Source of the DNA: Escherichia phage isim
DNA length: 64,000 bases
Direction: 5' to 3' (one strand)
Sequence record: MN850597.1
Position numbers and translations under genes: made by a program. Positions 13,486 to 30,942 of this stretch are shown here, one piece after another. Each line of letters begins with the position of its first letter. The first letter of the stretch is position 1. Under the pieces are notes generated by a model. The model did not search any database, was not told where the DNA came from, and saw only the letters and a list, made by a program, of their open reading frames with translations.

Positions 13486-13490
13486 AAATA

Positions 13491-14255: not shown

Positions 14256-14275
14256 ACTTTATCTCCTGCACGTTC

Positions 14276-14608: not shown

Positions 14609-14617
14609 ATATCATAC

Positions 14618-14809: not shown

Positions 14810-14872
14810 AATACATCGCTCTCTGTTAGTTTATGCGTATACTATACACTGCAGTTTTCAGATGTCAACCTC

Positions 14873-15264: not shown

Positions 15265-15320
15265 AGTGGTGCTCCCTCTCTCAATCGTTGTGGTGACTAT
15301 ACCATCTCAAAAGTCAGCTG

Positions 15321-15779
15321 TCAACACTCTTTGTACTCCACCACGATAATATCTATATCAAAAGTGGCGAGGTTAATAACGTCCTCTACGTGCTCCCACT
15401 TCAAACCGCCTATGCCGCACCCTATCTTAGGGATGTAGAATGGTAAAGTCGATCCCTCGAATACCTCATTGACTAGCTCAAAGCCTTTCAGGATTGAGAA
15501 ATATTCAGCATTAGGCCCTGGGTAGAACTGAGTATACAGATTGATTCCGTAGACAATACCTCTCGGAGATAAGTGCTCCCATCGGGAGAACGCACCCAGT
15601 TTACTTAGGCAACCGTGTCTGGTCTCTTTGTCGGCTGACAATGCTTGAGGAAACTCACGGGCAATCTGTTTTGCTATGCCCTTACCCATTGTGTGGAAGC
15701 AGTTACAACCGTGGATTAGGTGACCAGCACCGCTCTTAAAAAGGGAGATTAAATCTCCCTTTACAGTATCAATAATCAC
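15321..15779 (-). CDS. macro-domain (ADP-ribose binding/processing) protein (152 aa)
   Basis: N-terminal VKGDLISLF...HLIHGCNCFHTMGKGIAKQI and C-terminal PKIGCGIGGL resemble macro-domain signatures (GDIT...AIVNAAN...GGGV and ISTGIYGYP). Confidence 0.55.
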   Translation of the reverse strand: MIIDTVKGDLISLFKSGAGHLIHGCNCFHTMGKGIAKQIAREFPQALSADKETRHGCLSKLGAFSRWEHLSPRGIVYGINLYTQFYPGPNAEYFSILKGFELVNEVFEGSTLPFYIPKIGCGIGGLKWEHVEDVINLATFDIDIIVVEYKEC

Positions 15780-16194
15780 GGTATGCCAGCTCCTCTTCTA
15801 CGATACTGAAAAATTCTTCCCAGCTTTGAGGCATGTTGGTGTTTCCGAAGTGACTCTCATAGTAAAGGTTCTCACCACTCGGGAGATAGAAATCTGTTAC
15901 CTCATAGAATCCACAATCGTCGCACTCACCTTCTTCAAACTTGGCCTCAACCTTAATACCGAGGAAGGTGAAAAGTTTATGGATATCTTCAGTTTCGAAC
16001 TCCCAGTGAATGTTGTTTTCCGCATCGGTGTAGAACTGGATCAGCAGACCATTGTCCAGTTTACCAAAATATTCTGTGAAGTAACTTCCTCCCCAGAAAT
16101 CTTTATGACAAATAATATCCATGCGTTTGCCCATAATAATGGTGTGAGCGTTTTGGGCATCGTCACGAATCAGTTTTGGCATTTCATAGATCAT
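15769..16194 (-). CDS. hypothetical protein (141 aa)
   Basis: ORF; start overlaps the macro-domain gene. Confidence 0.5.
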   Translation of the reverse strand: MIYEMPKLIRDDAQNAHTIIMGKRMDIICHKDFWGGSYFTEYFGKLDNGLLIQFYTDAENNIHWEFETEDIHKLFTFLGIKVEAKFEEGECDDCGFYEVTDFYLPSGENLYYESHFGNTNMPQSWEEFFSIVEEELAYRDY

Positions 16195-16262
16195 CTTAGT
16201 TCTCCGGGTTCAACAGGTGGTGGTGCTACAGGAAGATCATAAAACATGGCTATCACAGTCTC

Positions 16263-16460
16263 TTACACAGGAATTGCTTCAAATAGACCGTTATCTATAC
16301 CGTCCTTCAGATAGAGATTATATTCTATGTCGGTATCTGTATAAAGGGCAGCATCCAGCATTCTATCTGTGAGTCCATCCATCGGGTGGAGAAACCACCA
16401 CCCACGCCAGTCAAAGTAACAGCCTGGTGCATCTTCTCTTACACGGATTCGATAAATCAT
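16263..16460 (-). CDS. hypothetical protein (65 aa)
   Basis: ORF in series. Confidence 0.4.
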   Translation of the reverse strand: MIYRIRVREDAPGCYFDWRGWWFLHPMDGLTDRMLDAALYTDTDIEYNLYLKDGIDNGLFEAIPV

Positions 16461-16555
16461 GGGCAGTGGCCTCCTGTTAGTTATACATCCCAGTTTTCTT
16501 CGTTCATCACGTCCTCCCGTCTATGAAGTTATAATTGCACACCTTTCAACCTGTG

Positions 16556-16972
16556 TCAACAGAAAACTTCAACAAACTCTTCCACAGTTTTAATGTCGTG
16601 GGAAAAAGGTTTACGGCTATAACGGGCAATAGCACTATCAACCACCGCTCGGTACTCAAGATCTTCAGAGTATTTCATGAAGCATTGCAGTGTTTCTGGA
16701 CAGATAGCTAGATAGCTCCACCACCCTTCATCAGATTGATAGTCAAAGCCCATGCTCTCCAACCATGAAGCATATACGCCTGCACCTTCCAGCCAGTGAG
16801 TATTTTCATCCAGAAACTTGTTAACAGACATGTGAGCTTCTAAGCACTTGTCCAGCTCTTTTCCGTTAACCAGCCACGCACTAACTGTGGCGCATCCAAG
16901 GTCTACAGATTGAGTTGACAGGTTGTATTGGTCATAGTTCTCAGGTTTAACAATGATATCTTCTAATGTCAT
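16556..16972 (-). CDS. hypothetical protein (138 aa)
   Basis: ORF; RBS AAGGAGA; preceded by a terminator-like hairpin. Confidence 0.55.
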   Translation of the reverse strand: MTLEDIIVKPENYDQYNLSTQSVDLGCATVSAWLVNGKELDKCLEAHMSVNKFLDENTHWLEGAGVYASWLESMGFDYQSDEGWWSYLAICPETLQCFMKYSEDLEYRAVVDSAIARYSRKPFSHDIKTVEEFVEVFC

Positions 16973-16998
16973 TTTTCAGATCTCCTTATACAAAAATG

Positions 16999-17024
16999 CC
17001 CCACCCTTTCGGGCAGGGCTATGT
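16999..17024 (-). terminator. GAAA-tetraloop hairpin (CCCUGCCC-GAAA-GGGUGGGG) followed by a U-run; identical copy at 27975
   Basis: 20-nt sequence identical at the two sites; on the minus strand a UUUUU tract follows, directly after the 17035 stop. Confidence 0.55.
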
Positions 17025-17034
17025 TAACTAGATG

Positions 17035-18261
17035 TTAGAATGGGATGTCATCATCAAAGGCGTACTGTGCTGGATTCTGATCCATCGGGTCATCTTCCCC
17101 ATCATTTACAGGAGGAGCGTCTACAGTGTTTTGCTGTGGAGCTGCTTCCTGTTTGGCAGCCTGAGGTTCTTGATGGTCAGTTGACCCAGCACCGTTCTTG
17201 ATCCAATCGTACAACGGCTCAGCCAGATTAGTCAAGACATCTTTTGCTTCTGCAGTAATTGCCGCTGCAAAATCATCAACTTTCGTTTTCTTGTCAATAC
17301 GGCGACAAGCGTTCAACACCGCATTACCGACACTGGCACCTACTTCATCTTCAGTTCGGTTGGTGGCTTGAGCATACTCTTTCTTAAGCTCAATAGTGAC
17401 TACGTGTAGTGTTTTAGCCACTCCTAGTGGGTCGTCTACCTTAAACCCGCGATCCAGGATGATTTGCAACGCATTGATGCTATGCCCCGTTTCCACACCG
17501 ATAGGGTCGTAAGAGGATTTACGCTTGCCACCAGAGCCTTGAGTACCGTTCTCTGCCTTAGGAGGATAGGCTTTGAAACCACTGATAATGTTTCCGGTGT
17601 CTTTGTCAACAATGGCTGCAACACGACCACCTACCACCAGGTCTTTAAGCTGCTCATCAGTTACAACCATAGCACCTTCGCCAATCTTGTGGTCATTAAC
17701 AGTAACCACGTTGCCAACAATCTGAGTCACATCACCATAGATGCGTAAAACGTCCTGATTGGCATTCTGCTGAGGTTTCTGCTTCTGGCCTTGTGATTGT
17801 GCACCTTGTTGCTGTTTTTGCTGCTGAGTCGCTGCTGGAGCCTCTCCTGCACCCAGCTTAACCATCTTAGCCAGTGAGCCTTTGTAGTAGGTCTTACCGT
17901 TATGCTCGTTTGCCTTCAAAGGGATATTTACGATCCATCCTGGCGTTACGGTTTCCCACTTGTCATCAATTTTAACAGAGACAGAGTCTTGATGACCCGG
18001 TTTAAGCAGCTTATCGCCCATACTGATCCAAATTTCTTCACCACCTTGAAGTAGGTTATCAGAGGAATCCAGTTCAGAAATCAGTAAAGAGATGGTGTGG
18101 CTGGACTCAATTTTCTTACCTTGCCACACAGTGGTTTTAATACCTGTTGTAGGATCAGCACCTTTGATAGGCTTGATGCTGACGCGTTTAATCATGCCGT
18201 GAGCCAGTAAAACAGTTTCACGCGGATTCATCGGGTTAGCGAATTGTTGAATAACGCTCAT
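17035..18261 (-). CDS. putative ssDNA-binding protein with an E. coli SSB-like C-terminal tip (...AFDDDIPF) and a Gln-rich linker (408 aa)
   Basis: C-terminus DDDIPF is identical to the E. coli SSB tip; sits in the replication module. Confidence 0.5.
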   Translation of the reverse strand: MSVIQQFANPMNPRETVLLAHGMIKRVSIKPIKGADPTTGIKTTVWQGKKIESSHTISLLISELDSSDNLLQGGEEIWISMGDKLLKPGHQDSVSVKIDDKWETVTPGWIVNIPLKANEHNGKTYYKGSLAKMVKLGAGEAPAATQQQKQQQGAQSQGQKQKPQQNANQDVLRIYGDVTQIVGNVVTVNDHKIGEGAMVVTDEQLKDLVVGGRVAAIVDKDTGNIISGFKAYPPKAENGTQGSGGKRKSSYDPIGVETGHSINALQIILDRGFKVDDPLGVAKTLHVVTIELKKEYAQATNRTEDEVGASVGNAVLNACRRIDKKTKVDDFAAAITAEAKDVLTNLAEPLYDWIKNGAGSTDHQEPQAAKQEAAPQQNTVDAPPVNDGEDDPMDQNPAQYAFDDDIPF

Positions 18262-18626
18262 TATTTGTCTCCTTGTTCTTCGTTAGTGTTTGCCGTGTGT
18301 GCAAACCCTGCTTGAATTAATTTGTCCTGAACTTGAGCCAACAGGCCCATTGCAAAACTTGTGGTCCCAGAGAGGGCCATCAACATATCTCGTTGTTGAG
18401 CTACCCAACCTAAGGCATAGTCCAAACGACGATATTTTTCTTCTTCACGCAGAGCCTGAAATAATTGTTCAGCCTCCGGTTGTTGTGTGAGCTCCTGAAG
18501 TCTTCCCATGAAAGAAGAAAGCACTAGCAAAAGAGACACTTGATCTTTACTTAACCCTAAGAAAAATTCTTGAGGTTGTTCTTGCTCGTTCATCGCAACC
18601 GACTCTTGATCGTTCATTTGTTCCAT
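18261..18626 (-). CDS. hypothetical protein (121 aa)
   Basis: ORF; stop/start overlap with the SSB-like gene. Confidence 0.5.
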   Translation of the reverse strand: MEQMNDQESVAMNEQEQPQEFFLGLSKDQVSLLLVLSSFMGRLQELTQQPEAEQLFQALREEEKYRRLDYALGWVAQQRDMLMALSGTTSFAMGLLAQVQDKLIQAGFAHTANTNEEQGDK

Positions 18627-18709
18627 TATGGAATCTCCGATTTTATTTGAACAACATAGAAGGAGACACTATTTTAGCATCCCCTTCTGTAAATTACAAT
18701 AGGTATTTG

Positions 18710-18955
18710 TTAGCCAATCACTTCGAAAGTTCCCCAATTCCCGTCCAGCAGGCAGGTGATCGGATCCCCATCGTCGTCAAAGATTTCAAAGTTTTCAGCA
18801 TCCAGGATGTGGCCCTCGAACACAATACTTTCGTCGCCACCACCAGAGATAACAGCGTATTCCTTACCTTGAGTCAAGTTTTGACACCCTTTGCCACCAA
18901 AACCTACTTCAACACAACGTACTTTCTGTCCTGCGCGAGCAACTACTTCAGTCAT
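18710..18955 (-). CDS. hypothetical protein (81 aa)
   Basis: ORF in series. Confidence 0.45.
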   Translation of the reverse strand: MTEVVARAGQKVRCVEVGFGGKGCQNLTQGKEYAVISGGGDESIVFEGHILDAENFEIFDDDGDPITCLLDGNWGTFEVIG

Positions 18956-18972
18956 CTTAAGGTCTCCTGATA

Positions 18973-19293
18973 TTAATCGTCAAGTTCAAAATAGATTTTA
19001 ACAGCTTCATCAAAGATTGGAATCCCAATGTTGTTGATAAGCTGCCAAACTACCATATCTTTACCTGGATCTGGGAGAATGTCAACCTTTCTCCATGCGC
19101 TGTATATCCAGTTCGGACCACCTTCTGCACTAACTGGCAGATTTTCACCAGCCTCCTGCAGATACTTATACAGCAAAAGATATTCTGGATACTCTAGAAC
19201 ACTGTCCCCTGTAGTATATAGCAGTTCACGGTATACTTTTAAGAACCCTGCTGGGGTAATGTTTTCAGTCTTCATTTGCCGCTTCTCCTGCAT
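18973..19293 (-). CDS. hypothetical protein (106 aa)
   Basis: ORF in series. Confidence 0.5.
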   Translation of the reverse strand: MQEKRQMKTENITPAGFLKVYRELLYTTGDSVLEYPEYLLLYKYLQEAGENLPVSAEGGPNWIYSAWRKVDILPDPGKDMVVWQLINNIGIPIFDEAVKIYFELDD

Positions 19294-19657
19294 TCATCAG
19301 GTCTGCCATAGCGTCACCTACGAAGAGAACAACCACATCGTTGACAGCGTCAGCATCATCTTTATTGACGTTGCTGAATTTAGGACACACCGCAATGATC
19401 ATATAGACACCGTTACCAACCTGAACTGTCCGTGTGGTGCACATCATGGCGGTATTTGTGCCTTCTTTGAAGGCGAAGCCTTGAAGACGCTCCTCTAAAG
19501 TGTTACCGGTAGATTTCAGAAGCGCCAGCTCGTCCAAGGCATAGATGATATCTCCGGAAGTTAGTGTTGCCTTGCCATCAGACACCATAATAACTCCATC
19601 AGCACCGTCAAGCTTAGAGGCTTCAAAGATATCAATATCCCAAATATTTTTCATCAC
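19265..19657 (-). CDS. hypothetical protein (130 aa)
   Basis: ORF in series. Confidence 0.5.
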   Translation of the reverse strand: MMKNIWDIDIFEASKLDGADGVIMVSDGKATLTSGDIIYALDELALLKSTGNTLEERLQGFAFKEGTNTAMMCTTRTVQVGNGVYMIIAVCPKFSNVNKDDADAVNDVVVLFVGDAMADLMNAGEAANED

Positions 19658-19974
19658 GCTTCCTCGTCGTCTAAAGAGTTGAAGATTTCACCGAAGTATT
19701 CTAAGACTTCTAGCTCCCGTGTGGTGCAGAAAACACAGTCACCGTTGTCATCCTCGATAACGGCCTCTTTACCCAGCACATCTACTTCAAGTTTATCGTT
19801 CAACAGGACAGCCCCTGTGTAAACTTTGTCGGCTGTGCAGTCCCGAAAAGCAGAGTCTTTCTCCAGATAGTCTGGCTTAACCTTGGCTTTAATTCGTTGG
19901 TATTGTTTGGTCATTGCTGTGGTCCCCTTTCGTTTTGATAGGGCCATTATATTAGGCCCCATCACTGTTGTCAA
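19654..19974 (-). CDS. hypothetical protein, paralog of 19978..20232 (106 aa)
   Basis: Shared pattern AF(R/K)DCT...Y...DD(N/E)GD(C/S)V(F/W)CT with its neighbour. Confidence 0.5.
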   Translation of the reverse strand: MTTVMGPNIMALSKRKGTTAMTKQYQRIKAKVKPDYLEKDSAFRDCTADKVYTGAVLLNDKLEVDVLGKEAVIEDDNGDCVFCTTRELEVLEYFGEIFNSLDDEEA

Positions 19975-19977
19975 GTA

Positions 19978-20232
19978 TTAATGTTCAGGTTTTACAAAAA
20001 CTACTTCATTAACAGTGCACCATACAGAGTCTCCTTCATCATCTTTAAAGGTAAGGCACTGTGCTGAGTTTTCCAGCTCATCGATCTCTTCTTGTGATAA
20101 AGGGGCCCCTTCTTCCAGGAGGGCTTTTACCAGAGGGTTCTCACAAAACTCTGCTTCATAAATTGCACCGACTGTGCAATCTTTAAAAGCTCGGTCATTT
20201 GCAACGCATTCTGACTTCAAAGTAATTTTCAT
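19978..20232 (-). CDS. hypothetical protein, paralog of 19654..19974 (84 aa)
   Basis: See neighbour. Confidence 0.5.
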   Translation of the reverse strand: MKITLKSECVANDRAFKDCTVGAIYEAEFCENPLVKALLEEGAPLSQEEIDELENSAQCLTFKDDEGDSVWCTVNEVVFVKPEH

Positions 20233-20308
20233 CTTAACAGTCTCCTTAGTTATTTAAAAATCAACACTCTGTTTGTGCGAAGCATCTTATATCTAATCTT
20301 ACTTCTTG

Positions 20309-20707
20309 TCAATGGCTATTTTCAATCAGCCACACAGGGTCTAGGTAAATTTGTTGGCGTGTTGCCCAATGACAAACTTCATTGTACATCTGAATCTCTT
20401 TGTCAGTCAGTTCACGAATAGGCTCATCTATACCCTCATTTTTGTGGTAATCCCAGTCGGCATCGATTTCCCACAACCATGACTTGTTGTCACCACGCTT
20501 ACGCACACAGAAGTCACCGGGACGGCCTGCCAATGCATTTAAGAACTCGTTCTCCGCTCGCTCCTGAAGAATACTAAGGAGCAAAACGTTAGAGCATGAC
20601 CGTAAAATATGCTTCAGCTCACAATCATCAATCTCAACTTCAATACGTTGTTTGACTGTGTGGGTACCTTTTACTAACATCCTACCTCCTCTAAACGAAC
20701 TCTGCAA
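20309..20707 (-). CDS. hypothetical protein (132 aa)
   Basis: ORF in series. Confidence 0.5.
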   Translation of the reverse strand: MQSSFRGGRMLVKGTHTVKQRIEVEIDDCELKHILRSCSNVLLLSILQERAENEFLNALAGRPGDFCVRKRGDNKSWLWEIDADWDYHKNEGIDEPIRELTDKEIQMYNEVCHWATRQQIYLDPVWLIENSH

Positions 20708-20885
20708 GAGTTGTGTTGTTCACTGCACCGCAGTAAATGGAGTATCCCAGCCCATTAGAGTGCAGAAACCACGGCGTGCCGAAATTATCTTTCACGTAGA
20801 CATCACCGTTGTTTGTAAAGGGCCAATATTCTTCCCCAAGGGTAAAATACCTATTCATACCTTCAGCAAGATACTTTACTTTCAT
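20691..20885 (-). CDS. small protein, member of a three-gene paralog set (64 aa)
   Basis: Shares F..G..Y......(I/V)KD..G..W(Y/F) with the next two ORFs. Confidence 0.45.
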   Translation of the reverse strand: MKVKYLAEGMNRYFTLGEEYWPFTNNGDVYVKDNFGTPWFLHSNGLGYSIYCGAVNNTTLAEFV

Positions 20886-21109
20886 AGGTCCTCTTCAACA
20901 ACTACAAACTTGGCAAGCAAAGTGGTTCCGTAGATATGATACTCACCGTTTGCCAGGTGAGAGATATACCAGGCAACCCCTTCCTCATCTTTAATCATTT
21001 TGTTTGCACGGGCTTTATCGTAATAAACCTCGTAGGTCTTTCCTTCTTTAAAGAATGACAGGTCTGTCATCTTTTCTTCTACAAAGGTAGCTTTAACCAA
21101 AGTCGTCAT
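20882..21109 (-). CDS. small protein, paralog family member (75 aa)
   Basis: FKEGKTYEVYY...IKDEEGVAWYI pattern. Confidence 0.5.
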   Translation of the reverse strand: MTTLVKATFVEEKMTDLSFFKEGKTYEVYYDKARANKMIKDEEGVAWYISHLANGEYHIYGTTLLAKFVVVEEDL

Positions 21110-21480
21110 TGATCGGTCTCCTTCTTGTTAAGTCTGAATACTGCAATAATAGTATTCCCAAGGTGCAGTGTCAAGTCATTTCCAAGATACCACAGCATCC
21201 CACGGTCATCTTTAATGAAAGGGTAACAATCTGGTGCCTTCCAGACATTGTACACTTTCCCAACCTGAAAGAAATCAGGCCCTGTTGGTATTTTGGTGCC
21301 AGGCCACACTTGAGATACCTGAACACACTCCACCTGCATAATAACAGGAATGGTCATGGATGTAAATGTTTTTGTTGACTCTACTACCATAAAAGTCTCC
21401 TCTTTGCTCAACAGCACCTCCCTGTGCTGATAGTTTACATTAGTGACAATCACCCCAATTACGACCACACAAGTATTCAC
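21106..21480 (-). CDS. protein with C-terminal paralog-family domain (124 aa)
   Basis: C-terminal FQVGKVYNVWK...IKDDRGMLWYL pattern. Confidence 0.45.
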   Translation of the reverse strand: MNTCVVVIGVIVTNVNYQHREVLLSKEETFMVVESTKTFTSMTIPVIMQVECVQVSQVWPGTKIPTGPDFFQVGKVYNVWKAPDCYPFIKDDRGMLWYLGNDLTLHLGNTIIAVFRLNKKETDQ

Positions 21481-21793
21481 CTGTGATCTGGAACGGGACT
21501 CCCATCATTTTAGAAGCTTGCCAGAAGCAATGCACCACCATTTCACCCACAGGGCTCCAGATAAGTTCAAGCTTTCCGTCATCGTTCAGGATAGGATCGT
21601 ACACCGTGTTTCCGTCTCTGTCAACCACTTCGTTTCCGTTTTCATCCTTGCGTGCCTTTTTGTACTTATGACCGTCAAACACATGAAGTTTGGCCTCCTG
21701 CTCTGCCTTAAATGCTTCCAATTCTTCAATTGTGTCGAAGGTGTACACAGTCTTATACTTAGGCGTGTCAGGGACCTGAAGTTGGTACTCATC
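21440..21793 (-). CDS. DNA polymerase C-terminal exon (begins DEYQLQV = motif C, ends ...GRNWGDCH)
   Basis: C-terminus resembles the T7 gp5 end (...GPNWAICH); the frame is open upstream of the listed TTG; no RBS for independent initiation. Confidence 0.55.
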   Translation of the reverse strand, partial: DEYQLQVPDTPKYKTVYTFDTIEELEAFKAEQEAKLHVFDGHKYKKARKDENGNEVVDRDGNTVYDPILNDDGKLELIWSPVGEMVVHCFWQASKMMGVPFQITGEYLCGRNWGDCH

Positions 21794-22635
21794 CAATAGT
21801 TCAGGTAGGTCGTTAAGCTACCCCGCACCATTACGTGCACAGCCATACGGTTTCCTGTATGGATCGGACTATCTCACTACCTTGTTACCAAGGCACCTCT
21901 CATTTCGACCGCACTTGCTGGCCTACTCTACTCGCTTCTTCACACCAAACTATGTTGGAGCTATGCTTTCGATAGTCTCTGAACGTTACTACCAGGTGTA
22001 GTTTTTAGAGATATGTTTCCACTGTCTTCTTTGCTTTATGGCTCTGACCGTCTCATAAGGATACCCAAGATCCCTAATCTCACATTGTCGTAGACCACTC
22101 TGCAACAGTTCACAAATCTCCATTACCTCATCCTCGGTCAGCACAGCGTTGGCATTATACTCACCGACTGGCCTTACTCTGAGCTCATTATCGTAGGCGT
22201 GTTTGATATTTTCACCGGGGGTAGTCCATTCCAGGTTCCAGTATGCATTGTTGTACTTATTTCCATCCTTATGGTTCACCCATGTGAGCTTTTCAGGATC
22301 AGGGTTCGGTACAAAGCATTCAGCAACCAAGTGGTGGACACCTTTTGTGCACTGCCTTCCATCGATGAGCATGGTTACGCAAAGGTAACCTCTACCATTA
22401 TCAAAACAAAACATTGTTGTATGATCACGTTTCGATAAAGGTATTGTTCCATCATCAAACACGATATACCCGTGATAATCAGCTGATCTAGCCATTTTAA
22501 CTACACCCCTTTAGTCTTCGCTGCGGATTAGCATATTGAGTTTTTACCATGTTTAGGTGTAAAAGTCAACTTAGCCTTCCCGTCAATTAAAGAGGTTTTC
22601 GACGTGCATCACTGCACGAAGCCACAATGTTATTT
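21794..22635 (-). mobile_element. putative group I intron (about 842 nt) interrupting the DNA polymerase gene inside motif C and carrying an HNH endonuclease ORF
   Basis: Exon 1 ends ...IIYYH then stops 2 codons later; exon 2 begins DEYQ; proposed 5' junction follows a U and the 3' junction follows a G. Confidence 0.5.
21989..22495 (-). CDS. HNH homing endonuclease (168 aa)
   Basis: VHHLVAECFVPNP...VNHKDGNKYNN...NLEWTTPGEN matches the HNH homing-endonuclease signature. Confidence 0.8.
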   Translation of the reverse strand: MARSADYHGYIVFDDGTIPLSKRDHTTMFCFDNGRGYLCVTMLIDGRQCTKGVHHLVAECFVPNPDPEKLTWVNHKDGNKYNNAYWNLEWTTPGENIKHAYDNELRVRPVGEYNANAVLTEDEVMEICELLQSGLRQCEIRDLGYPYETVRAIKQRRQWKHISKNYTW

Positions 22636-25059
22636 ATGGTAATAGATAATACGACGAACACCTTCATCGTACCACCCACGCTTCACCATTTGGTGGTGCA
22701 TAAGTATCCCAACTAAGTCACACAGCGATGCACCACCATTCTGTTGGTATGCATTAAGTAAAGAGTGTTTAGATCGGGTCCAGATGGCATGACCATCAAA
22801 AGAGTAGATAAACTTCTTACCCGTTGCTTCCCAGAATTTCTCCAGATCCTCTTTACGCCCCTTAAGACCAGGGTTGGCATCCCAAAGTGCATCGATCACC
22901 CTTTGTCCCAACTCTGGAGAGATGTCCAGCATATCTGCAACTTTATCTTTTTGTGCCCCGTACATAACCCCATACGTGATAGGTTTACCGTCGTTACGAG
23001 ACACCTCTCTGCCTGCTACTTTTGTATATGCCTCAGCATTGTTTTGGTGTGCGTCCCCGTTACTTACAACATCATAATACAAGCCGTTGTCGAACTCAAA
23101 GGCACCCCAAGCCCCGATAAGCTGCTCTAAGTTGGACCCGTCAATACCGATCTCAAAGTATCCTGGAGGAACACCCCACAGACTACGCATCTCTTTACCC
23201 ATAACCACTTTAGGAGATGGTTTAGGCATGTTTGCACAAATACTGTGTTTCTGTCTGGAAGTGTTTGTTAATCCAGAGCTTTTAGCAGGAAGCTTATGGT
23301 CAATCTTCAAACGTGGGTGATTAAGAAGACCAGTATCAACCTTATCCTCCTTAATTGGATCAAGGACCGATCTGCGGTTTCGCAATGATAACCACAAGAC
23401 GATATCTTTAGCCATCTCTCCGTTCAATTTTTCAAGATTCGGACATAGGTGTCCAAACGTATCTTTCAGTTGCGGAGAAGTAATAAGTGCTCTGGCTTTT
23501 CTACGTATTTTCCCGAATACTTCCTTTTTAATCCTTTCGGAGTTAGGAAAGCTTCGGAACTTGTGCACGGTTGTCTGGAACTTAGCATCAGTTTTGTTCC
23601 AGAAGTTGATAATCAGGTCACAATACTCTGACTCTAAAAGCTCGTCCATATATGCATATACTCGTGCATCAACATCTGCATCAGGTAGAGCTTTCTTCTT
23701 GCTGTCTTTAGTTACATCCTTAGTTCTCCACATTGTCGGAAGCCAACCAGCACTGATCAGGTATCGCTTAATATCGTCCTGATTGCTGATTTTCATAGGT
23801 ATCTTGCAGTCAGGCATTCGCTTCTGCTGCAGATCGCTTATTGCCTGATCCATCAGCTCTTTAGGTAAAGGTTGTGGTGTGGAGGTGCCCTTAATATAAC
23901 CTCTCAAGAAATCAGCCATCTTGTCTGGGTCTTTGCAGCCCATCTCTTCACACCATTTTATCCCCATTTTACTGACATCTCCTGTGGAGGTAAATGCTCG
24001 CTTAGGTGGGGCTTTGAACTCTAAAGCGCTCATGTCTACAGGATAGCCAAGCTTATCTTTTAACCATTTCCAACCATTATTGGAGATTGTCCCATCTTGG
24101 TTAAACGGCTTTTCAGGGAACTTGGGCCGCTGAGACATTGACAGCTCTTTTAAAGGTAGTTGTGGTTCAACACGATCAGCTATTTCTTTCATCCACGCAT
24201 CGCAACGGTCACGTAAAGCAATAGCCCCGTCTATGTCGAAATACACACCCTGACGGGCCTGCAGCTCCATCAGGAAGTGCTGCAGCATGCCTCGGCGTAA
24301 TGCGTTCTTCCAGGTGATCTTCTTGAACCCTTTTGGCTTCTCTTTGGCAGGATCGTACATAAAGTTCTGCATGTCAGATTTGCCGTAGAATACACCTTTT
24401 GATTCCGCTACCAGCTCTTTCCAGAGCAGCTCCTGGATGATAACGTCCTCGAATACACGATCCACATACTTCCACAGCGGAAGATCGCGCCAGTCATCAA
24501 TTTGAACTTTCTGGTTACCAAGAGCGTAGCCCCATGCCATAAGGCCGTGAGGACCAACAGGCTGCATTTTCTTAGTAACCGGGTTGAATACAGAGTCCGG
24601 GCAACCTTTTGGTAAAGGGCGATCAGGCCACAAGATTCGGCTCATCGCCAACGTATCGAACAGGTTAACCTGGTGGTCGTTGATAGTCCCCATACATTTA
24701 GGATCACGGAACATATCAAAATGAATACCGGATAATCTCTCCATCAGCATAAAGTCATAACTGTAGCAGTTATGGCAGTTCAAAGCTGTTGGTGACCAGT
24801 CGGAATTTCCTGTAAGCCAACCTTCCAACTCCGAAAAATCTGCTATGCGAACTTCAAAATCTTTATAAAGAGTTTTCTTTGCCAGAATAAAGTTCTTAGC
24901 CTTCTCTATATCCTCCTCGGAGTAGTGTGTGCGGTCATTTAGAGGAAGGAACAGCATAAAACGGTTCTTATTCAGCTCTTTAAACAGGCCGCAATGATAA
25001 TAAAGATCTGGGTCTTCCAGCAAACCGGATGACTCAAAATCGAACGACCACATGCTCAT
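22636..25059 (-). CDS. DNA polymerase, family A (T7 gp5-like), N-terminal exon with 3'-5' exonuclease and polymerase motifs A and B; ORF stop at 22630
   Basis: Exo I FDFESSGLLE...HCG (T7 DIEANALLE...HCG), motif A GIDGSNLEQ, motif B RNDGKPITYGVMYGA, then FDGHAIWTRSKHSLLNAY; the HDE motif is missing from this ORF. Confidence 0.85.
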
Positions 25060-25117
25060 ATACAGTTCTCCTTAAAGGGGAGGCGGTTGTACTACCCCTC
25101 CCACTCTTTGTTAAACA

Positions 25118-27196
25118 TTAAAAAGGTGTTTCATCATCCTCAAAACCAGGAACATGGTCAGAGGACGGATCATCGTACTGGAGGTCTTCCTGCGTGTCAA
25201 CAGGCTTAACAGTAGGAGTTACAACCTTATCAGCCACAACCTTACCCATAGGTGTTTCTACAACTGCATGCTCCTGATCCTCAAACATAGCCTGAGGTCT
25301 CCAAACAACCTCCCCACCTTCTCCATCTGTAAACATTTGCATTTCTTTGTCCCAGTACCAATTACTGGCATCATGGAACTTACCTGTATGTGGGTCCATA
25401 ACCAAAGTGTCTGCAATACCTAAAGTTTTTGCTGGACGGTTTTTAAGACCTACCAGTCGGACACGCCCACGAGAACGATCCACCATTTCTTCGGCCTCGA
25501 CACCTATGACTACCCAACTCAACTGTTCAAGCCCAGCCGATCCTCGCAAATTCTCTTTTCGCACAGGATACCAGAAAGGTAACGGGTTACCATCCTTGTC
25601 CTTAGGAGGCACAATCTCTGTACGTTTGAGGTGAGCGATCACCAAGATAAACACATTGAACTGCTTACAAAACGCAGCCAGCTGGGTCATAGCCATGTCC
25701 AGTTCTTTTCGCTCATCCTTAACATTAAGCCCCGAAATTACCATGGACAGGTGATCCAGCACAATATAACGGCAATGGTACAGGCAAACCATTTGCTTAA
25801 GCTTGGTAATCAACTCGTCCACCGGAATAGACCCGAAATGTTTGAACACTTTGATTTTTCCAGCTTTTGCCCATGATTGGTGAATCTCTGCGTGTTCTTG
25901 ATCAGTTAAAAACTGGCTAGGATCTTCAACAAACTCTTTAACATCAAACCCTAGCTGGTTTGCATACAAGGAGTTAATTGCTTCCTCTGGGTCCTCCTCA
26001 AGATGGATCATGCATAGACGATCATCCTCTTCATAGTCATCGGCCTTCGGGCATGTCGGGTCCATCAAGTATCTTGCAATACAATGTTCCAGTTTTTTAG
26101 CTACAGTTGTTTTACCGCCCCCTGATGGCCCTGTAAGCATTACGAGTGTCCCTTTGTGCAAGCCTTTTAGCATTTTTTGCAGTTTTGGAAACTCTGCGCT
26201 GATATCTACCCCGTTGGAAGTCTTTTTCCGCAAAGATTCGATAGAGAAGTCTTCTAAATCCGACACAGCATCAGGCACATACTTAACAGGATGCCGGAAC
26301 ATGTTTACAATATCTTCCAGCTTTTTAGCCTTTAGCATGTCACGGATATCTTTTACACCGTCAGGATCGTTTACCTCACCGGGGTATTCTACGTGGTAAA
26401 CGTTATCAGCCATCAAAAATGCTGCGATATTGTGCGTTGCCTCAACACCTTTAATGACGTGTTTTTGCTTCTCTACCTCGTTAGCTGCATCGTTATCCAT
26501 TGCCAGCACAACTGTTCCATAGCTACGGATAAACTTCTCATTGTTTGCAAAAGTATCTACTGCGTTTGCACATCCACAGTTAATTCCAACAAAAGGCAGG
26601 CATGGTTTTCCTGCCAGATCGCCACCGTTGATAACTGCATCGATCCCGTCCTGGACCTCTTTAGCCCACTGTTTCACCTTTGCCGGGGCTTTAGCGTTGG
26701 TGAGAATCCCTTTTACTTGTATCTGATATGCAGCCTGCCATGCTGCAATAACATCACCTTCTCCCTCACAAACGTTAATCTGCTTACGGTTGTTGGAAGA
26801 TGCACACAGCTTTTGACCAAACATCTGAGAGTTAGCCTTTACTATGCCAACAACGGAGAAATGGCCTCTTTGCTCTTTAGGAATCGTCCAGTCACGCTTT
26901 TTGAAACCGGACAGATTTCCGTAGCGGTCGTAATATGGGAAATATGTTGCAGTGACTGTCACACCATCTTCTTGGGATAATGCTGATCGCACACCAAAAT
27001 ATTGTGCAGCCATCAGACCGATATTTTGTTGTGGGACAGGGACAATTTTAGTATTTTCTAAAACAGTCTCTACAGTTTCAACTTCTTTTTCATCACGATA
27101 GTCTCGTTTCACACTTCCCCCACTTTTATACTTAGTTGCTTTCGGGTTTGGCTCACCGAAACGGTTGTATGCAGATGCCATAAATTTACTTCCCAT
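25118..27196 (-). CDS. DNA primase/helicase (TOPRIM primase plus DnaB-like helicase, T7 gp4-like) with acidic C-terminal tail ending ...EDDETPF (692 aa)
   Basis: TOPRIM EGEGD and MDNDAAN; Walker A GPSGGGKTT; acidic tail ending in Phe. Confidence 0.8.
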   Translation of the reverse strand: MGSKFMASAYNRFGEPNPKATKYKSGGSVKRDYRDEKEVETVETVLENTKIVPVPQQNIGLMAAQYFGVRSALSQEDGVTVTATYFPYYDRYGNLSGFKKRDWTIPKEQRGHFSVVGIVKANSQMFGQKLCASSNNRKQINVCEGEGDVIAAWQAAYQIQVKGILTNAKAPAKVKQWAKEVQDGIDAVINGGDLAGKPCLPFVGINCGCANAVDTFANNEKFIRSYGTVVLAMDNDAANEVEKQKHVIKGVEATHNIAAFLMADNVYHVEYPGEVNDPDGVKDIRDMLKAKKLEDIVNMFRHPVKYVPDAVSDLEDFSIESLRKKTSNGVDISAEFPKLQKMLKGLHKGTLVMLTGPSGGGKTTVAKKLEHCIARYLMDPTCPKADDYEEDDRLCMIHLEEDPEEAINSLYANQLGFDVKEFVEDPSQFLTDQEHAEIHQSWAKAGKIKVFKHFGSIPVDELITKLKQMVCLYHCRYIVLDHLSMVISGLNVKDERKELDMAMTQLAAFCKQFNVFILVIAHLKRTEIVPPKDKDGNPLPFWYPVRKENLRGSAGLEQLSWVVIGVEAEEMVDRSRGRVRLVGLKNRPAKTLGIADTLVMDPHTGKFHDASNWYWDKEMQMFTDGEGGEVVWRPQAMFEDQEHAVVETPMGKVVADKVVTPTVKPVDTQEDLQYDDPSSDHVPGFEDDETPF

Positions 27197-27950
27197 TAAT
27201 TCTGCTCCTTACTACAGGCTCGTTTGCTAAGAATACGGCTTTTGCCCAGCCACGTGGTGTGAGGCTTCGAATCATCTTCGTTCTTGCACTCTTTCCACCC
27301 AGCTTGGCGTGTTGCATGGAATACCCGCTAACCACGTCAACTATTTGCGGGACAGGTTTTGTGGCCGGGATTATAAATCCATTACCTATCCAGCCGCAAG
27401 TTATTTTTGGATAGGCATCACGTGGAGCTATAAATTCAGGAAACCATGGGTTTACATCATCTTCCGGTAAATACCCGCCATAGTCAGAAGGATGAAAACG
27501 GTAATCAGGTTTGCGCCACAGTGTGGACATAACACCTACAGGATTCTCTACATGCCACGGGCAATCGTAAATCTCTCCCAGCTCTTCCGCAACCCGAGCA
27601 TCCCTTACAGCATTAATTTGGATCATGGGATCCTTAGCCAGCTTTTTCTTAAAATGTGCAGCACCTGATACCGCTAAATGCGTGCACGGAGGAAATGCAA
27701 GAATAAAGTCTGGAGCTGGGTACATGCAAAAAGTTTCCTGAGGGAACCATGGGTCAATCCAATAATCCACATAGTGAATGTTGGGATGATCGGTTATCAC
27801 CTCTGCATAACTGCCGTGATCAGCACCTTCTGCATTAAAGCACAGGCACAGATACCCAGCTTTTGCCCAGTCAATGACTGCACCACCAGATCCGTCAAAT
27901 AGGCTCCACACAACACCTTTGTGGTAGTGTTCTTTGTAGATAAATTTCAA
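27186..27950 (-). CDS. DNA (cytosine-5)-methyltransferase-like protein, short form (about 254 aa from TTG; ORF track starts at 27980)
   Basis: Motif I LFDGSGG, motif IV FPPCTH (PC), motif VI HVENPVG (ENV); RBS AGGAGA 7 nt before TTG at 27950; too short for a full target-recognition domain. Confidence 0.55.
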   Translation of the reverse strand: MKFIYKEHYHKGVVWSLFDGSGGAVIDWAKAGYLCLCFNAEGADHGSYAEVITDHPNIHYVDYWIDPWFPQETFCMYPAPDFILAFPPCTHLAVSGAAHFKKKLAKDPMIQINAVRDARVAEELGEIYDCPWHVENPVGVMSTLWRKPDYRFHPSDYGGYLPEDDVNPWFPEFIAPRDAYPKITCGWIGNGFIIPATKPVPQIVDVVSGYSMQHAKLGGKSARTKMIRSLTPRGWAKAVFLANEPVVRSRINGK

Positions 27951-27974
27951 TTTGCTGTCTCCTAATGCAAAAAG

Positions 27975-28000
27975 CCCCACCCTTTCGGGCAGGGCCTAGT
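27975..28000 (-). terminator. GAAA-tetraloop hairpin plus U-run, second identical copy
   Basis: Same 20-nt sequence as 16999-17018; lies between the 28002 stop and the methyltransferase RBS. Confidence 0.55.
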
Positions 28001-28001
28001 G

Positions 28002-28484
28002 TTAAACCCGGATACCTATTGTATACTCGGTGGATACCAATGTCAAATCTAAATTTAAAATTTCTTGCATCTCATAATATGCGTCCAGGGTGAGATACAT
28101 TTCCCCATCCTTTTCTACATACTTGTCCAAGTGCTTGAGGCATTTCGGATAACTATCGAGTGCAGCTTTCAGACACTCAAACTCTGTGCTGTTGATGAGT
28201 CCTTCCATCTTGGCTACCCGTTCTGGGGTAACGATAGCACTGTAGTGAGATTTAGCTTCCTGAATGCAATGGGTCCAAGCATCAACTTTCTCTTCGAAAA
28301 GCCCGAAGAATTTCTTTTTGGTGAGCTTCAGATTCTTTAAGTGCTTAAGCACTCGGTTGCCGATCACAGCCACATCACGAAACTTAAGGATCACTTTGTC
28401 GATATCCTCGCGGCCTATTTTCACAAAGCAAGCCTCACACATTTCAGGAGCTGCGTAACCTACTTTCCACATAAAATCTGACAT
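28002..28484 (-). CDS. hypothetical protein (160 aa)
   Basis: ORF in series. Confidence 0.55.
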   Translation of the reverse strand: MSDFMWKVGYAAPEMCEACFVKIGREDIDKVILKFRDVAVIGNRVLKHLKNLKLTKKKFFGLFEEKVDAWTHCIQEAKSHYSAIVTPERVAKMEGLINSTEFECLKAALDSYPKCLKHLDKYVEKDGEMYLTLDAYYEMQEILNLDLTLVSTEYTIGIRV

Positions 28485-28496
28485 AACACTATCTCC

Positions 28497-28895
28497 TTAT
28501 TCTTCCTGAAAAGCAACGATATCATATGAACTTGCAGACGATCCTGGTGAAGAATGACTCCAGTCTAGGTCATCAGAGTAGTCAGCGTACTGTGCACCAC
28601 TACGTAGTTTATATTTTACCCACTTACCTGGTGCAGGGTTTTCACCACCTTCCCATACTTCCCAGCCTTCTGGCAGGCCGTCCTGGGAATAGTCATCCAC
28701 CTCACTAATAATCTTAGGGTTTGGCACCAAGATCCCTGCAGGCTCTTCCTTCCGGATAAGTGTCCACACAACGTAGGTGTCTGAGCAGGCGCATGATAGC
28801 AAAGTATATCCACTATTCAGAACTTCTGCAAGCTCTTTTTCAGCATCTTCCAATTTGGTTAAGTGGTATTGGAGAATCTTCACACCTGTAATCAT
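28497..28895 (-). CDS. hypothetical protein (132 aa)
   Basis: ORF in series. Confidence 0.55.
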   Translation of the reverse strand: MITGVKILQYHLTKLEDAEKELAEVLNSGYTLLSCACSDTYVVWTLIRKEEPAGILVPNPKIISEVDDYSQDGLPEGWEVWEGGENPAPGKWVKYKLRSGAQYADYSDDLDWSHSSPGSSASSYDIVAFQEE

Positions 28896-29239
28896 CAGAA
28901 ACCTCCCACTTCTTCAGCAAATGCAGCTGCTGTCGTCGCTGCATCCAGATAGGACTCTAGTTCACGGGCTGCACGTTTGTAAATTGAGTGTCGCAAATCG
29001 TTTGGCAGTTGGTGGAAGTCCACCTCTTCACCGTTGTGGTAAACATACACATCGGTAATTTGTCTAAATCCGTAATAGTCAACATCAGAATCACGGCACT
29101 CTGGGTCTGGCAACTGGACAACTGCCTGAGCTTCCACAGTGAACATATCGTCAAGTTCGAAATCGATTTCAAAAGTGTATGGTTTATAACATTTCATCAT
29201 TTGATTGTACTCTTTATTGATCAGACTTATCTTTCGCAA
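28895..29239 (-). CDS. hypothetical protein (114 aa)
   Basis: ORF; start overlaps the methyltransferase stop. Confidence 0.55.
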   Translation of the reverse strand: MRKISLINKEYNQMMKCYKPYTFEIDFELDDMFTVEAQAVVQLPDPECRDSDVDYYGFRQITDVYVYHNGEEVDFHQLPNDLRHSIYKRAARELESYLDAATTAAAFAEEVGGF

Positions 29240-30539
29240 TTAAGGTCGGGGCAAGTTTGTAATAACGGAAGCCACCACCACCTTGCCAGTTTACAGACTT
29301 AGAAATACCACCTTGATCTTCACCATCGATCACTTTTTCCAAGCGCGGAATAATATGGGTATGACAATGATCACCTAGCTCGATTGAGATCCAACGTCTT
29401 TTCATCTTGTGAGCTACAGCAGCAGTAGTTCCCGAACCACCGAATGAATCCAATACCAAATCGCCTTCTCGCGTACACATTTCGAAAATTCGCTTCAAAA
29501 GCGCTTCTGGTTTTTTCCCATTTTTGAAACTAACGCCGCCTTCATTTGCTATTCCATTCCAACTAATGTCTGTCCAAACATCAGTTATTAGTTCCGCAGG
29601 TTGCATATCACCGTCAATTTCCAAAAGCCTGTTGGAGTAAAAGACCATTTGCCTACCATTTACGATATAAAATCCTTCAACATCTTCATTTGGATGTACA
29701 TAAACCTTATCCCTATCTTTCTTTGACTTCTCGATAGTTTCTTTTCTCTTTATTTTAGCACCACCGCCGATTGCAACAGATTGAAATACACGTTCTGCAT
29801 TATCAATTGCGAATTGTGCTAATTCATCATCGAATGTATCAGGCAGTTTTTTCTTGGCCTCTTTTGCATCTTTATAGCCATTGGCCTTTGCAAACGCATC
29901 GGCAATACCGCACCACGTCCAATTTTTATAATGGTCATCCGGGTTTAATAGGTATTTGTTATATCCTGTATCATACCCTTTAGGTATATAGATTTTGTTA
30001 AGCGGTTTCTGGGTGCGATCTTTTGCATATACAAGCAAAAAGTTTGCTGTGGAGAAAACTGTGGCTCCTGTTGCCTTAAATCCCGAAGGGGAATTTGTGG
30101 TCATCGATATGGTATTTAACTGATTTGCACGACCAAAAATCTCGTCCATCAAAACTTTTAAATACGCCATTTCGCAATCATCTAAGTGAACGAATATTAC
30201 CCCATCATCACTTAGAAGATTACGAATTATTTCTAACCTATCCCTCATTAAGCCCAGCCAAATGGAATGCTCAAGGCTATCATCGTAGTGCTCAAAAGCC
30301 CTTCCAGTATTGAATGGTGGGTCTATGTAAACACACTTCACTTTGCCTGCATACTCTTGCTCTAGCGCCTTCAATGCTAATAAGTTATCTCCAAAAATCA
30401 GTTTATTATCAAAAATATCGTTTTCGGTCACTTTCTGGCTGTGGTAAGACTTGCTAGAATCTTCTAACAAAATGTGCGGCTCTAACTTTTTGCGCTCGTT
30501 TTTACCTATCCAGGTTAGTTCTAATTTGGTTTTGCTCAT
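29214..30539 (-). CDS. N6-adenine (or N4-cytosine) DNA methyltransferase, beta-class, type III Mod-like, orphan (441 aa)
   Basis: Motif IV VYIDPPFNTG precedes motif I LVLDSFGGSGTT; no adjacent restriction gene. Confidence 0.8.
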   Translation of the reverse strand: MSKTKLELTWIGKNERKKLEPHILLEDSSKSYHSQKVTENDIFDNKLIFGDNLLALKALEQEYAGKVKCVYIDPPFNTGRAFEHYDDSLEHSIWLGLMRDRLEIIRNLLSDDGVIFVHLDDCEMAYLKVLMDEIFGRANQLNTISMTTNSPSGFKATGATVFSTANFLLVYAKDRTQKPLNKIYIPKGYDTGYNKYLLNPDDHYKNWTWCGIADAFAKANGYKDAKEAKKKLPDTFDDELAQFAIDNAERVFQSVAIGGGAKIKRKETIEKSKKDRDKVYVHPNEDVEGFYIVNGRQMVFYSNRLLEIDGDMQPAELITDVWTDISWNGIANEGGVSFKNGKKPEALLKRIFEMCTREGDLVLDSFGGSGTTAAVAHKMKRRWISIELGDHCHTHIIPRLEKVIDGEDQGGISKSVNWQGGGGFRYYKLAPTLIAKDKSDQ

Positions 30540-30600
30540 CGTTTGGTGCTCTCCTTAGTTTTTTGTGGGGAGGAGGCCTCCCCTTTATACTCACATCTTA

Positions 30601-30942
30601 CTACTCAAGGTCTTCAGAGTCAAGCTCAAAAAGAATCAAACTGTGCATGCCTGCAGAGAGATCAACACACCCTGCAACAATAAGGGTCTGATAGTAAGGT
30701 TCAGCACCCTCGATGTCTTCGTTAAAATCCACAACAAGGTAGTCACCTTTGTTAAAGGTGTATTTGTCCGATGTGAATGCAAAACCTGCCCAGTCCCCTA
30801 CTGCAGGATCTTTATCAGTCACCTTTGTTAGCAGTAGATCTTTTTCACGAGATCTTTTAGTAAAATCGTGAATCACAACATCCTTCTCTTCAGGAGTTGG
30901 ATTGCCACACACGTAGTTAACGATATTTCTCCACAAACTCAT
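30601..30942 (-). CDS. hypothetical protein (113 aa)
   Basis: ORF in series. Confidence 0.5.
   Translation of the reverse strand: MSLWRNIVNYVCGNPTPEEKDVVIHDFTKRSREKDLLLTKVTDKDPAVGDWAGFAFTSDKYTFNKGDYLVVDFNEDIEGAEPYYQTLIVAGCVDLSAGMHSLILFELDSEDLE

Follow-up and report, generated by a model that had tools for sequence, protein, structure and literature searches.

The polymerase gene of Escherichia phage isim (MN850597.1), the insert that interrupts it and an HNH gene within that insert are all encoded on the minus strand of the 64-kb window, the window being the whole stretch of DNA that was analysed. The layout of the locus is as follows.

22636..25059, minus strand: DNA polymerase exon 1, 808 codons, with the exonuclease domain and motifs A and B; terminus ...RRIIYYH
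21794..22635, minus strand: group I intron (IA2-like), 842 nt, AAAUAACAUUGUGG...CUAUUG, recognised from RF00028, covariation and its boundaries
21988..22515, minus strand: endonuclease cassette in the P6a loop, 528 nt, replacing the 14-nt P6a hairpin CAUCCGAGAGGAUG of the ORF-less form
21989..22495, minus strand: HNH homing endonuclease gene, I-HmuI-like, intact ORF of 168 aa
21794..21794, minus strand: terminal guanosine (omega-G) at the 3′ splice site, a G before GAUGA in 13/13 orthologues
21440..21793, minus strand: DNA polymerase exon 2, 117 codons and TAA, DEYQLQV...GDCH and stop; its first residues are the catalytic D809 and E810 (motif C)

Exon 1 was assigned from the ORF list, the Pfam family DNA_pol_A and an alignment with T7 gp5. 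It lies in an 809-aa ORF (25059..22630, minus strand) with the tail ...RRIIYYH-K-stop. The first-pass annotation had put the stop of this ORF two codons after ...IIYYH; the stop is present, and its position is refined here to one sense codon, AAA, followed by UAA. An intein was ruled out by this stop codon, two codons into the insert. Exon 2 was found in a 118-codon ORF (21796..21440, minus strand) that reads GAT GAG TAC..., or DEYQLQV...GRNWGDCH and stop, after a "TTG start", and this TTG is the last three bases of the intron. Exon 1 and exon 2 joined give 2778 nt and 925 aa, and in the alignment with T7 gp5 the spliced H808/D809/E810 fall on T7 H653/D654/E655, so that joining the exons rebuilds motif C as had been claimed. 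The tryptic peptide spanning the exon junction of the spliced polymerase is IIYYHDEYQLQVPDTPK.

The boundaries were derived from intron-free alleles. In the intron-free sister phage PMBT16 the polymerase CDS measures 2778 nt, the summed length of the two exons, and the DNA across the junction reads tattaccat followed directly by gatgagtaccaa. This allele sets the 5′ splice site directly after position 22636, the U of CAU; the 3′ splice site lies behind G 21794. A 245-aa probe spanning the junction was recovered in one piece, with 99.6-100% identity, from the intron-free Vequintaviruses PMBT16, V18, EdH4 and inoa. Since the exons are fused at exactly the same point in intron-free relatives, the split arrangement is not a matter of chance. 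In the BASEL GenBank records, likewise, the polymerase is entered as a join of two pieces, and subtracting the intron from its span leaves 2778 nt. The bounds in the first-pass annotation, 21794-22635, are identical to those derived independently here, and the protein of the concatenated exons, which it had put forward for a search, equals the uninterrupted polymerase of the sister phages.

The region is entered as two or three separate CDSs in most GenBank records, and gene splits by HNH genes without splicing are documented in other phages (cited in PMC7344957). Both facts favour a reading in which the insert stays in the RNA and the polymerase is made as two separately translated polypeptides of 809 aa and about 117 aa, like the genes of Aeromonas phage Aeh1 that homing-endonuclease insertions have split. 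This is highly improbable, because exon 2 lacks both an ATG and a Shine-Dalgarno sequence, is preceded in frame by a TAG at a distance of 9 codons, and has as its sole candidate start the intron-terminal UUG, adjoining the P9.2 hairpin. A polymerase of this kind would moreover have the H in one chain and both catalytic residues, D and E, in its partner. Neither the lack of a ribozyme nor a downstream start with a ribosome-binding site, the marks of a gene split by a free-standing HNH gene, was found in the window. The structural elements located in the insert are instead those of a ribozyme.

22622..22629, minus strand: internal guide sequence CAUUGUGG; GUGG/CCAU is P1 (exon 1 end) and CAUU/GAUG is P10 (exon 2 start)
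22603..22618, minus strand: P2 hairpin, both-sided change in 6/6 pairs across orthologues
22590..22596, minus strand: P3 5′ strand ACCUCUU, partner 21895..21901, both-sided change in 3/7 pairs
22522..22585, minus strand: P4-P5-P5a/b domain, from the Rfam alignment
22579..22585, minus strand: P4 5′ strand
22536..22569, minus strand: P5a/b
22522..22527, minus strand: P4 3′ strand
21973..21977, minus strand: P7 5′ strand GACUA (guanosine-binding helix), partner UAGUC 21867..21871
21907..21926, minus strand: GUA linker and P7.2, with P7.1 the IA2 hallmark
21879..21894, minus strand: P8 hairpin, both-sided change in 5/6 pairs
21843..21862, minus strand: P9, 4 pairs change on both sides
21825..21838, minus strand: P9.1, 1 pair changes on both sides
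21803..21823, minus strand: P9.2, 3 pairs change on both sides

The Rfam model RF00028 matched the window intron over its full length with 33 bits (E=3e-6), which is below the gathering score of 50 bits; a scan of the whole window at the gathering threshold gave no match, and the intron surfaced only with an E-value threshold. The low score is due to the 528-nt cassette in P6a, which is penalised. ORF-less orthologues at the same site scored 72.5, 91.2, 77.3, 69.8 and 64.7 bits, all above the gathering score. The earlier proposal of a group I intron with an HNH gene splitting H from DE is thereby upheld, at 33 bits in the window and 65-91 bits in the ORF-less orthologues, and every check on sequence that it had named gave a positive result.

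Thirteen orthologues, drawn from seven phage groups, were scored for covariation at 60 pairs. When the complete introns, minus their ORFs, were aligned with MAFFT, the variable P5/P6 periphery came out scrambled, and the pair counts were made on sequences trimmed to the conserved modules, so that P5, P6 and P7.1 were judged by eye only; P7.1 was seen by inspection and left unscored because its columns were not alignable. Across the 13 orthologues 97.5% of cells were paired, against 35-40% with the partner columns slid, and both-sided changes occurred in 26/60 pairs, against 0-8. None of 500 shuffles matched the observed percentage of paired cells, the number of pairs or of cells with both-sided change, or the covariation score, and the count of further pair types in the same 13 sequences was no better than shuffled (252/500). 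P1 (CCAU/GUGG), including the U•G at the splice site, was invariant in 13/13 sequences, and the U and G that the first-pass annotation had noted before the two junctions prove to be this P1 wobble and the terminal G, neither of which varies among the 13 orthologues. In P10 (GAUG/CAUU) three of the four pairs were invariant and the fourth varied one-sidedly, with 98% of cells paired. One pair of P4 switched from G-C to U-A; P7 was 100% paired with one U-A to C-G switch, and P7.2 was 100% paired with both-sided change in 2/4 pairs. The mark of subgroup IA2 is a pair of additional helices, P7.1 and P7.2, that lie between P7 and P3′ and are linked by G-U-A (PMC3428280). P7.1, P7.2 and the GUA linker are all found in the window intron, and the GUA(G) linker between the two helices is invariant in the ribozyme alignment. 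Judged by its sequence, the insert is a genuine group I intron of the IA2 type. A complete ribozyme upheld by compensatory changes, even in forms that have lost the ORF, is sensible only if splicing is under selection, and this argues against two separately translated polypeptides.

The splicing of an orthologous intron argues in the same direction. The intron of Pectobacterium phage CB7 was spliced in vivo, as documented by RT-PCR and Sanger sequencing (Buttimer et al. 2020, PMC7344957). CB7_51 ends in RRIIYYH-K-stop, the intron begins with AAGUAACAUUGUGG and carries the HNH gene CB7_50, and CB7_49 resumes at DEYQLEV. Polymerase intron 2 of vB_PatM_CB7 and phiTE (Certrevirus, Vequintavirinae) has the same insertion site as the window intron, RRIIYYH/DEYQL, and the same 5′ end, AARUAACAUUGUGG, and its core P1-P3 and P7-P9.2 is homologous to that of the window with compensatory differences. 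The CB7/phiTE HNH protein is however shorter (127 aa annotated), and its resemblance to that of the window is confined to the surroundings of the HNH motif (36% over 53 aa). Its ORF (MGNQQ...) starts ahead of P4′ and continues through that strand, whereas the ORF in the window lies inside the P6a loop. A second CB7 intron, located in motif B, has no counterpart in the window.

It is thus very probable, on comparative sequence evidence, that a mobile, self-splicing IA2 intron of 842 nt, carrying an HNH gene, interrupts the polymerase gene of phage isim, an rV5-like Vequintavirus, within motif C, where it separates H from DE. By analogy with the CB7 orthologue, splicing would proceed in phage isim from a single pre-mRNA of the polymerase gene, on which the guide sequence CAUUGUGG would align the end of exon 1 (CCAU, with the U•G at the cleavage site) with the start of exon 2 (GAUG). 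Guanosine-initiated self-splicing would then excise the intron after its terminal G, and the spliced mRNA would yield the 925-aa polymerase with its HDE catalytic site intact. Unspliced RNA would be read to the stop after one extra codon (AAA UAA), giving an 809-aa protein without the two catalytic carboxylates. That this product is made in meaningful amounts from an intron that does splice, with splicing efficiency tuning the polymerase supply, could be argued from the in-frame stop 1-2 codons past the 5′ splice site in 13/13 orthologues (AAA/AAG UAA, AGG UGA) and from the Pf-WMP3 polymerase, whose exon 1 product alone is reported to have exonuclease activity and no synthesis (PMC3428280). 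Phage group I introns nevertheless usually contain an early stop, for which no special function need be assumed, and the intron-free sister phages do well, which makes a regulatory role of the 809-aa protein very unlikely.

The HNH ORF was present as the first-pass annotation had it, but it is not free-standing, since it sits inside the peripheral P6a loop of the intron. The bounds of the cassette were found by comparison with JLBYU08, JEP1 and SYGMH1, whose introns are ORF-less. The cassette is closed by ACUA...UAGU and has the ribosome-binding site AAAGGGG inside; the P6a closing stem of the ORF-containing form is only these 4 bp (ACUA/UAGU). The protein matched Pfam HNH_3 with E=8e-5 and 22.7 bits, slightly below the cut-off of 24.8, and PHROG 59 (HNH endonuclease) with E=7.5e-39, and I-HmuI (PDB 1U3E) was its sole significant PDB match (E=6e-5 with the single sequence, 6e-11 with the profile). 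No internal promoter of the HNH gene stood out convincingly in a scan for promoters and terminators, the counts being near shuffle expectation, and no second intron-like or HNH-like sequence was found in the 64-kb window. Another ORF of 168 aa in the window (7930..7424) encodes an unrelated, membrane-like protein. If the enzyme is active in the manner of I-HmuI, it would nick or cut the polymerase gene of co-infecting relatives that lack the intron, close to where the intron inserts, and repair would then copy the intron in. Such homing would explain the patchy distribution of the intron among near-identical phages.

The group I introns of T4 td and nrdB are arranged like that of the window, being of subgroup IA2 (P7.1 and P7.2) with the I-TevI and I-TevIII ORFs in P6a; they differ in their host genes and in their endonuclease families (I-TevI is GIY-YIG). 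In E. coli Pol I the corresponding residues are H881/D882/E883 (Klenow fragment numbering), and site 881 is the His of HDE, the same position as that of the window intron. At this site 881 the T7-like phages ΦI and W31, to whose sequences I-TslI (AAV53690) belongs, are reported to carry IA2 introns with an HNH ORF in P6a (PMC3428280). These phages are podoviruses with a much shorter T7-type polymerase, and the likeness of their introns to the window intron, drawn from a secondary citation, is one of site, subgroup and ORF position. Introns of the I-HmuI type are also of group I, interrupt a family A polymerase gene and encode a nicking HNH homing endonuclease, but they belong to phages of Gram-positive hosts and lie at a different site, Pol I position 674 in the fingers subdomain (PMC3428280).

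The intron is an ordinary, already documented kind of phage element, and its significance is chiefly for annotation. Many GenBank records, the closest (phage ime) among them, break the locus up into a "DNA polymerase" that is truncated, a gene for an HNH protein and a "hypothetical protein", and the polymerase was given as 775 aa in the original rV5 paper. The true polymerase product would be 925 aa with an intact catalytic site. Local mosaicism near the polymerase gene of the Vequintavirinae is also explained once the intron is recognised. The HDE codons in family A polymerases are a recurrent target of group I introns, to which one more documented case is added, and the current understanding of introns or polymerases is left unchanged.

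About 122 records matched, at least 44 of them with an uninterrupted junction and 30 with the same HNH gene, the rest having ORF-less introns of 276-329 nt. The presence/absence polymorphism of the intron among close relatives is that of a mobile intron. Forms that have lost the ORF occur at this H/DE site with lengths of 276-343 nt. Several states were found there: the 14-nt P6a hairpin, the I-HmuI-like cassette precisely replacing the hairpin, and, in CB7, phiTE and Aeromonas TS9, another HNH gene, which begins ahead of P4′ and continues through it. Distinct HNH arrangements on one ribozyme suggest at least two independent endonuclease invasions. In one class of intron-free alleles synonymous changes cluster within the 18 nt that open exon 2; the inoa allele is a variant with GAC GAA TAT CAG...CAA, and the flanks of the PMBT16 allele are identical to those in the window. 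Tentatively, and with considerable doubt, the intron family might be taken from these sequences as a natural before/after series for the gain of mobility, with at least two endonuclease invasions and with some intron-free alleles possibly resistant to cutting.

Partial intron matches in records of about 43 kb, considered as T7-like carriers, were not orthologues. ECO104 4-5-2 has a different intron at another polymerase site (between ...SASNP and ...QQLP). A126 is classed in the Ounavirinae (Felix O1-like). Phage 19-1-2, considered as an unrelated 77-kb phage, was instead a partial Avunavirus scaffold within the Vequintavirinae. In JEP1 a genuine intein was observed elsewhere in the same polymerase gene.

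The family A DNA polymerase gene of this rV5-like coliphage (Vequintavirus; Escherichia phage ime is 98% identical over the polymerase region) is genuinely interrupted between the H and the DE of motif C. The gene upstream encodes a T7-type primase/helicase, and the ORF list gave three features:

25059..22630, minus strand, ORF of 809 codons ending ...RRIIYYH-K-stop
22495..21989, minus strand, HNH ORF of 168 codons
21796..21440, minus strand, ORF reading (TTG)DEYQLQV...GRNWGDCH-stop

Exon 1 ends with the T of CAT (His808, 22636) and exon 2 starts with GAT (Asp, 21793), and the 842-nt intron between them begins with AAAUAACAUUGUGG, ends in ...CUAUUG and occupies 22635..21794 (minus strand), the very coordinates proposed in the first-pass annotation. 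The joined exons comprise 2778 nt and encode 925 aa. When the joined protein was searched, a 245-aa probe spanning the junction was found in one piece in the intron-free Vequintaviruses PMBT16, V18, EdH4 and inoa with 99.6-100% identity. The polymerase CDS of PMBT16 is exactly 2778 nt, and its DNA reads ...tattaccat|gatgagtaccaactt... over the junction. Alignment to T7 gp5 places H808, D809 and E810 opposite T7 H653, D654 and E655, the motif C residues that include both catalytic carboxylates; the uninterrupted sister alleles and this alignment agree on a split at YYH|DEYQLQV.

A default Rfam scan gave no match to any family at gathering score anywhere in the 64-kb window. A permissive scan gave a full-length match of 33 bits (E=3e-6) to the group I intron family RF00028 (gathering score 50), spanning 22645..21844; it was the sole hit at E<0.01 in the whole window. 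The long insertion artificially depresses this score. ORF-less orthologues, which have no endonuclease gene, scored from 64.7 to 91.2 bits: the same intron in phage JLBYU08 (329 nt) reached 72.5 bits (E=2e-18), and Avunavirus 19-1-2, Vibrio phage K470, Klebsiella phage VLCpiM5b and A13b reached 91.2, 77.3, 69.8 and 64.7 bits, respectively. The suggested covariance-model search for a group I core was therefore positive.

Covariation was scored in 13 non-identical introns, all at one H|DE codon boundary, from Vequintavirus, Avunavirus, Mydovirus, Seunavirus, Certrevirus, a Vibrio phage and an Aeromonas Plateaulakevirus. The introns were trimmed to the alignable core before scoring, and the structure was drawn by hand (helices P1, P2, P3, P4, pseudoknotted P7, P7.2, P8, P9, P9.1, P9.2 and P10). 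Paired cells made up 97.5% of 759, against 35-40% with partner columns slid 1-3 positions, and 26 of the 60 pairs were changed on both sides, against 0-8 after sliding; the observed percent paired and covariation score were matched by none of 500 shuffles. All 6 pairs of P2 covary, as do 5 of the 6 in P8. The 13 introns share an identical P1 (CCAU/GUGG, the U•G lying at the cleavage site), and in P10 (GAUG/CAUU) pairing reaches 98%, three of the four pairs being invariant, so the guide sequence CAUUGUGG (22629..22622, minus strand) pairs without break with the ligated exons CCAU|GAUG. The U and G that had been pointed out at the 5′ and 3′ junctions proved to be the U•G of P1 and the terminal G of the intron, both invariant. 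Both P7.1 and P7.2 were found with an invariant GUA linker, an arrangement that serves as a criterion for subgroup IA2 (PMC3428280).

The ORF-less introns of phages JEP1 and SYGMH1, otherwise nearly identical to that of the window, delimit a 528-nt cassette (22515..21988) that exactly substitutes for the 14-nt P6a hairpin CAUCCGAGAGGAUG. The cassette opens with ACUAAAGGGG, a ribosome-binding site, followed by ten nucleotides and AUG, and ends in ...UGG UAG U, so that ACUA/UAGU can close the loop. The encoded protein contains an HNH_3 domain (E=8e-5) and falls in PHROG 59, HNH endonuclease (E=7.5e-39). Among solved structures, the only significant match was I-HmuI, a nicking homing endonuclease from the polymerase intron of SPO1, at E=6e-5 with the single sequence and E=6e-11 with a four-sequence profile (residues 6-105). 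In Av-05, SSE121/K54 and CR9, the same intron encodes orthologous HNH proteins (57-71% identity). Ribozyme, covariation and HNH family all agree with the initial reading, and what interrupts the gene is an ordinary mobile group I intron of subgroup IA2 that carries an HNH homing endonuclease.

Transcription of the polymerase gene would run on across the intron, and the ribozyme would cut itself out, giving a spliced mRNA for the 925-aa polymerase, while unspliced RNA would stop after AAA UAA. This early stop is kept in all orthologues as AAA/AAG UAA, or AGG UGA in TS9. It is very improbable that the polymerase is instead made as two separate polypeptides: exon 2 has neither an ATG nor a Shine-Dalgarno sequence, it is preceded by an in-frame TAG at a distance of nine codons, and its sole candidate start is the terminal UUG of the intron, adjoining the P9.2 hairpin. 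Moreover, the ribozyme has been kept by compensatory changes and persists even after ORF loss, which is sensible only under selection for splicing. Alongside splicing, the ribosome-binding site of the cassette would serve translation of the HNH enzyme, which, if it acts as I-HmuI does, would nick intron-free alleles and so begin gene conversion.

About 122 phage records match the polymerase region. The junction is uninterrupted in at least 44, the HNH gene of the window is present in 30, and the remaining records have ORF-less introns of 276, 328 or 329 nt. All three states coexist among phages with identical flanking-exon protein, the patchy spread that homing followed by ORF decay would predict. 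Pectobacterium phage vB_PatM_CB7 (CB7), its fellow Certrevirus phiTE and Aeromonas TS9 have a different HNH gene within the one ribozyme (CB7 intron nt ~150-540; TS9 260-998). This ORF (MGNQQ...) starts before P4′, the P4′ strand AAUCAGCA doubling as coding sequence (Asn-Gln-Gln), and the similarity of its product to the HNH protein of the window is confined to the surroundings of the catalytic motif (36% over 53 aa). One ribozyme with two HNH genes at different positions, together with ORF-less forms, could be a natural series for endonuclease acquisition by introns. One intron-free allele class (inoa and 28 similar records) shows clustered synonymous differences from the window in the first 18 nt of exon 2 (21793..21776), GAC GAA TAT CAG CTT CAA versus GAT GAG TAC CAA CTT CAG, and the change at the third base of the Asp codon would weaken P10. 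Such an allele may resist cleavage, or it may record an earlier co-conversion event.

Introns at this site of family A polymerases have been documented before, and the kind of intron is already known. Pol I site 881 is the His of HDE. At site 881, two T7-like phages, ΦI and W31, are reported to have self-splicing IA2 introns (Bonocora & Shub 2004, as cited in PMC3428280) whose HNH ORF is in P6a; as described, they are like that of the window in site, subgroup and HNH position. In CB7, of the same subfamily, CB7_51 ends RRIIYYH|K-stop and CB7_49 resumes at DEYQLEV; the intron starts AAGUAACAUUGUGG, carries the HNH gene CB7_50, and shares its site and a homologous ribozyme with the window. Among the orthologues, splicing has been shown experimentally only for that of CB7, by RT-PCR and Sanger sequencing in infected cells (Buttimer et al., PMC7344957). 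Joined annotation is already present in GenBank: the polymerase CDS crosses the intron in the BASEL records WalterGehring (Bas51), RudolfGeigy (Bas52), HeinrichReichert and AlexBoehm, being flagged as a two-piece join in Bas51 and Bas52 (span minus intron 2778 nt) and overlapping the HNH gene in the other two; BASEL intron boundaries were annotated via comparative genomics (PMC8594841). The terminase gene was the only one for which the original rV5 paper noted introns, and the polymerase length given there is 775 aa (PMC3606486); the closest record, ime, still has three separate CDSs. The practical value of the finding is annotation correction.

With at least four selfish insertions (both introns, an intein and an upstream endonuclease gene), the polymerase gene makes a hotspot. 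The JEP1 polymerase ORF (MT740314) is 1132 aa owing to an in-frame 323-aa intein (aa 672-994) after SNGDAH, with Cys as first residue and an end in ...CGN followed by Cys; the window has no intein at that point, the empty site falling between 23047 and 23046 (minus strand, ...SNGDAH|QNN...). Motif B contains another site (TYG|VMYGAQ) for an HNH-carrying intron. Polymerases of Certrevirus, Seunavirus, Mydovirus-like and Avunavirus phages, CB7, phiTE, SSE121 and Av-05 included, have an intron there, but in the window the site is empty, between 22969 and 22968 (minus strand, ...ITYG|VMYG...). In some Vequintaviruses, namely WalterGehring (442-1176), FFH2, Mangalyan and VB-EcoM-WM, a further homing endonuclease gene (245 aa), free-standing, separates the primase/helicase from the polymerase start, where the window has an empty 58-nt gap (25060..25117). 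No second HNH-like or intron-like sequence was found in the 64-kb window, and ARAGORN found no tRNA genes in 1..64000.

Between 16 and 20 'UNVERIFIED Campylobacter phage' records, MG0656xx (A13b, C7, C12, A135 and others), are classified as Vequintavirus and share 88-97% identity with E. coli rV5-like phages; their Campylobacter host label looks unreliable. In the ORF-less polymerase intron, the stretch from P5b to P6 (nucleotides 85-157) shares ~85% identity with part of the terminase large-subunit intron of other Vequintaviruses (rV5_ev168 and MaxBurger), outside the window, which suggests that the two introns are related or that intron modules have been exchanged within Vequintavirus genomes.
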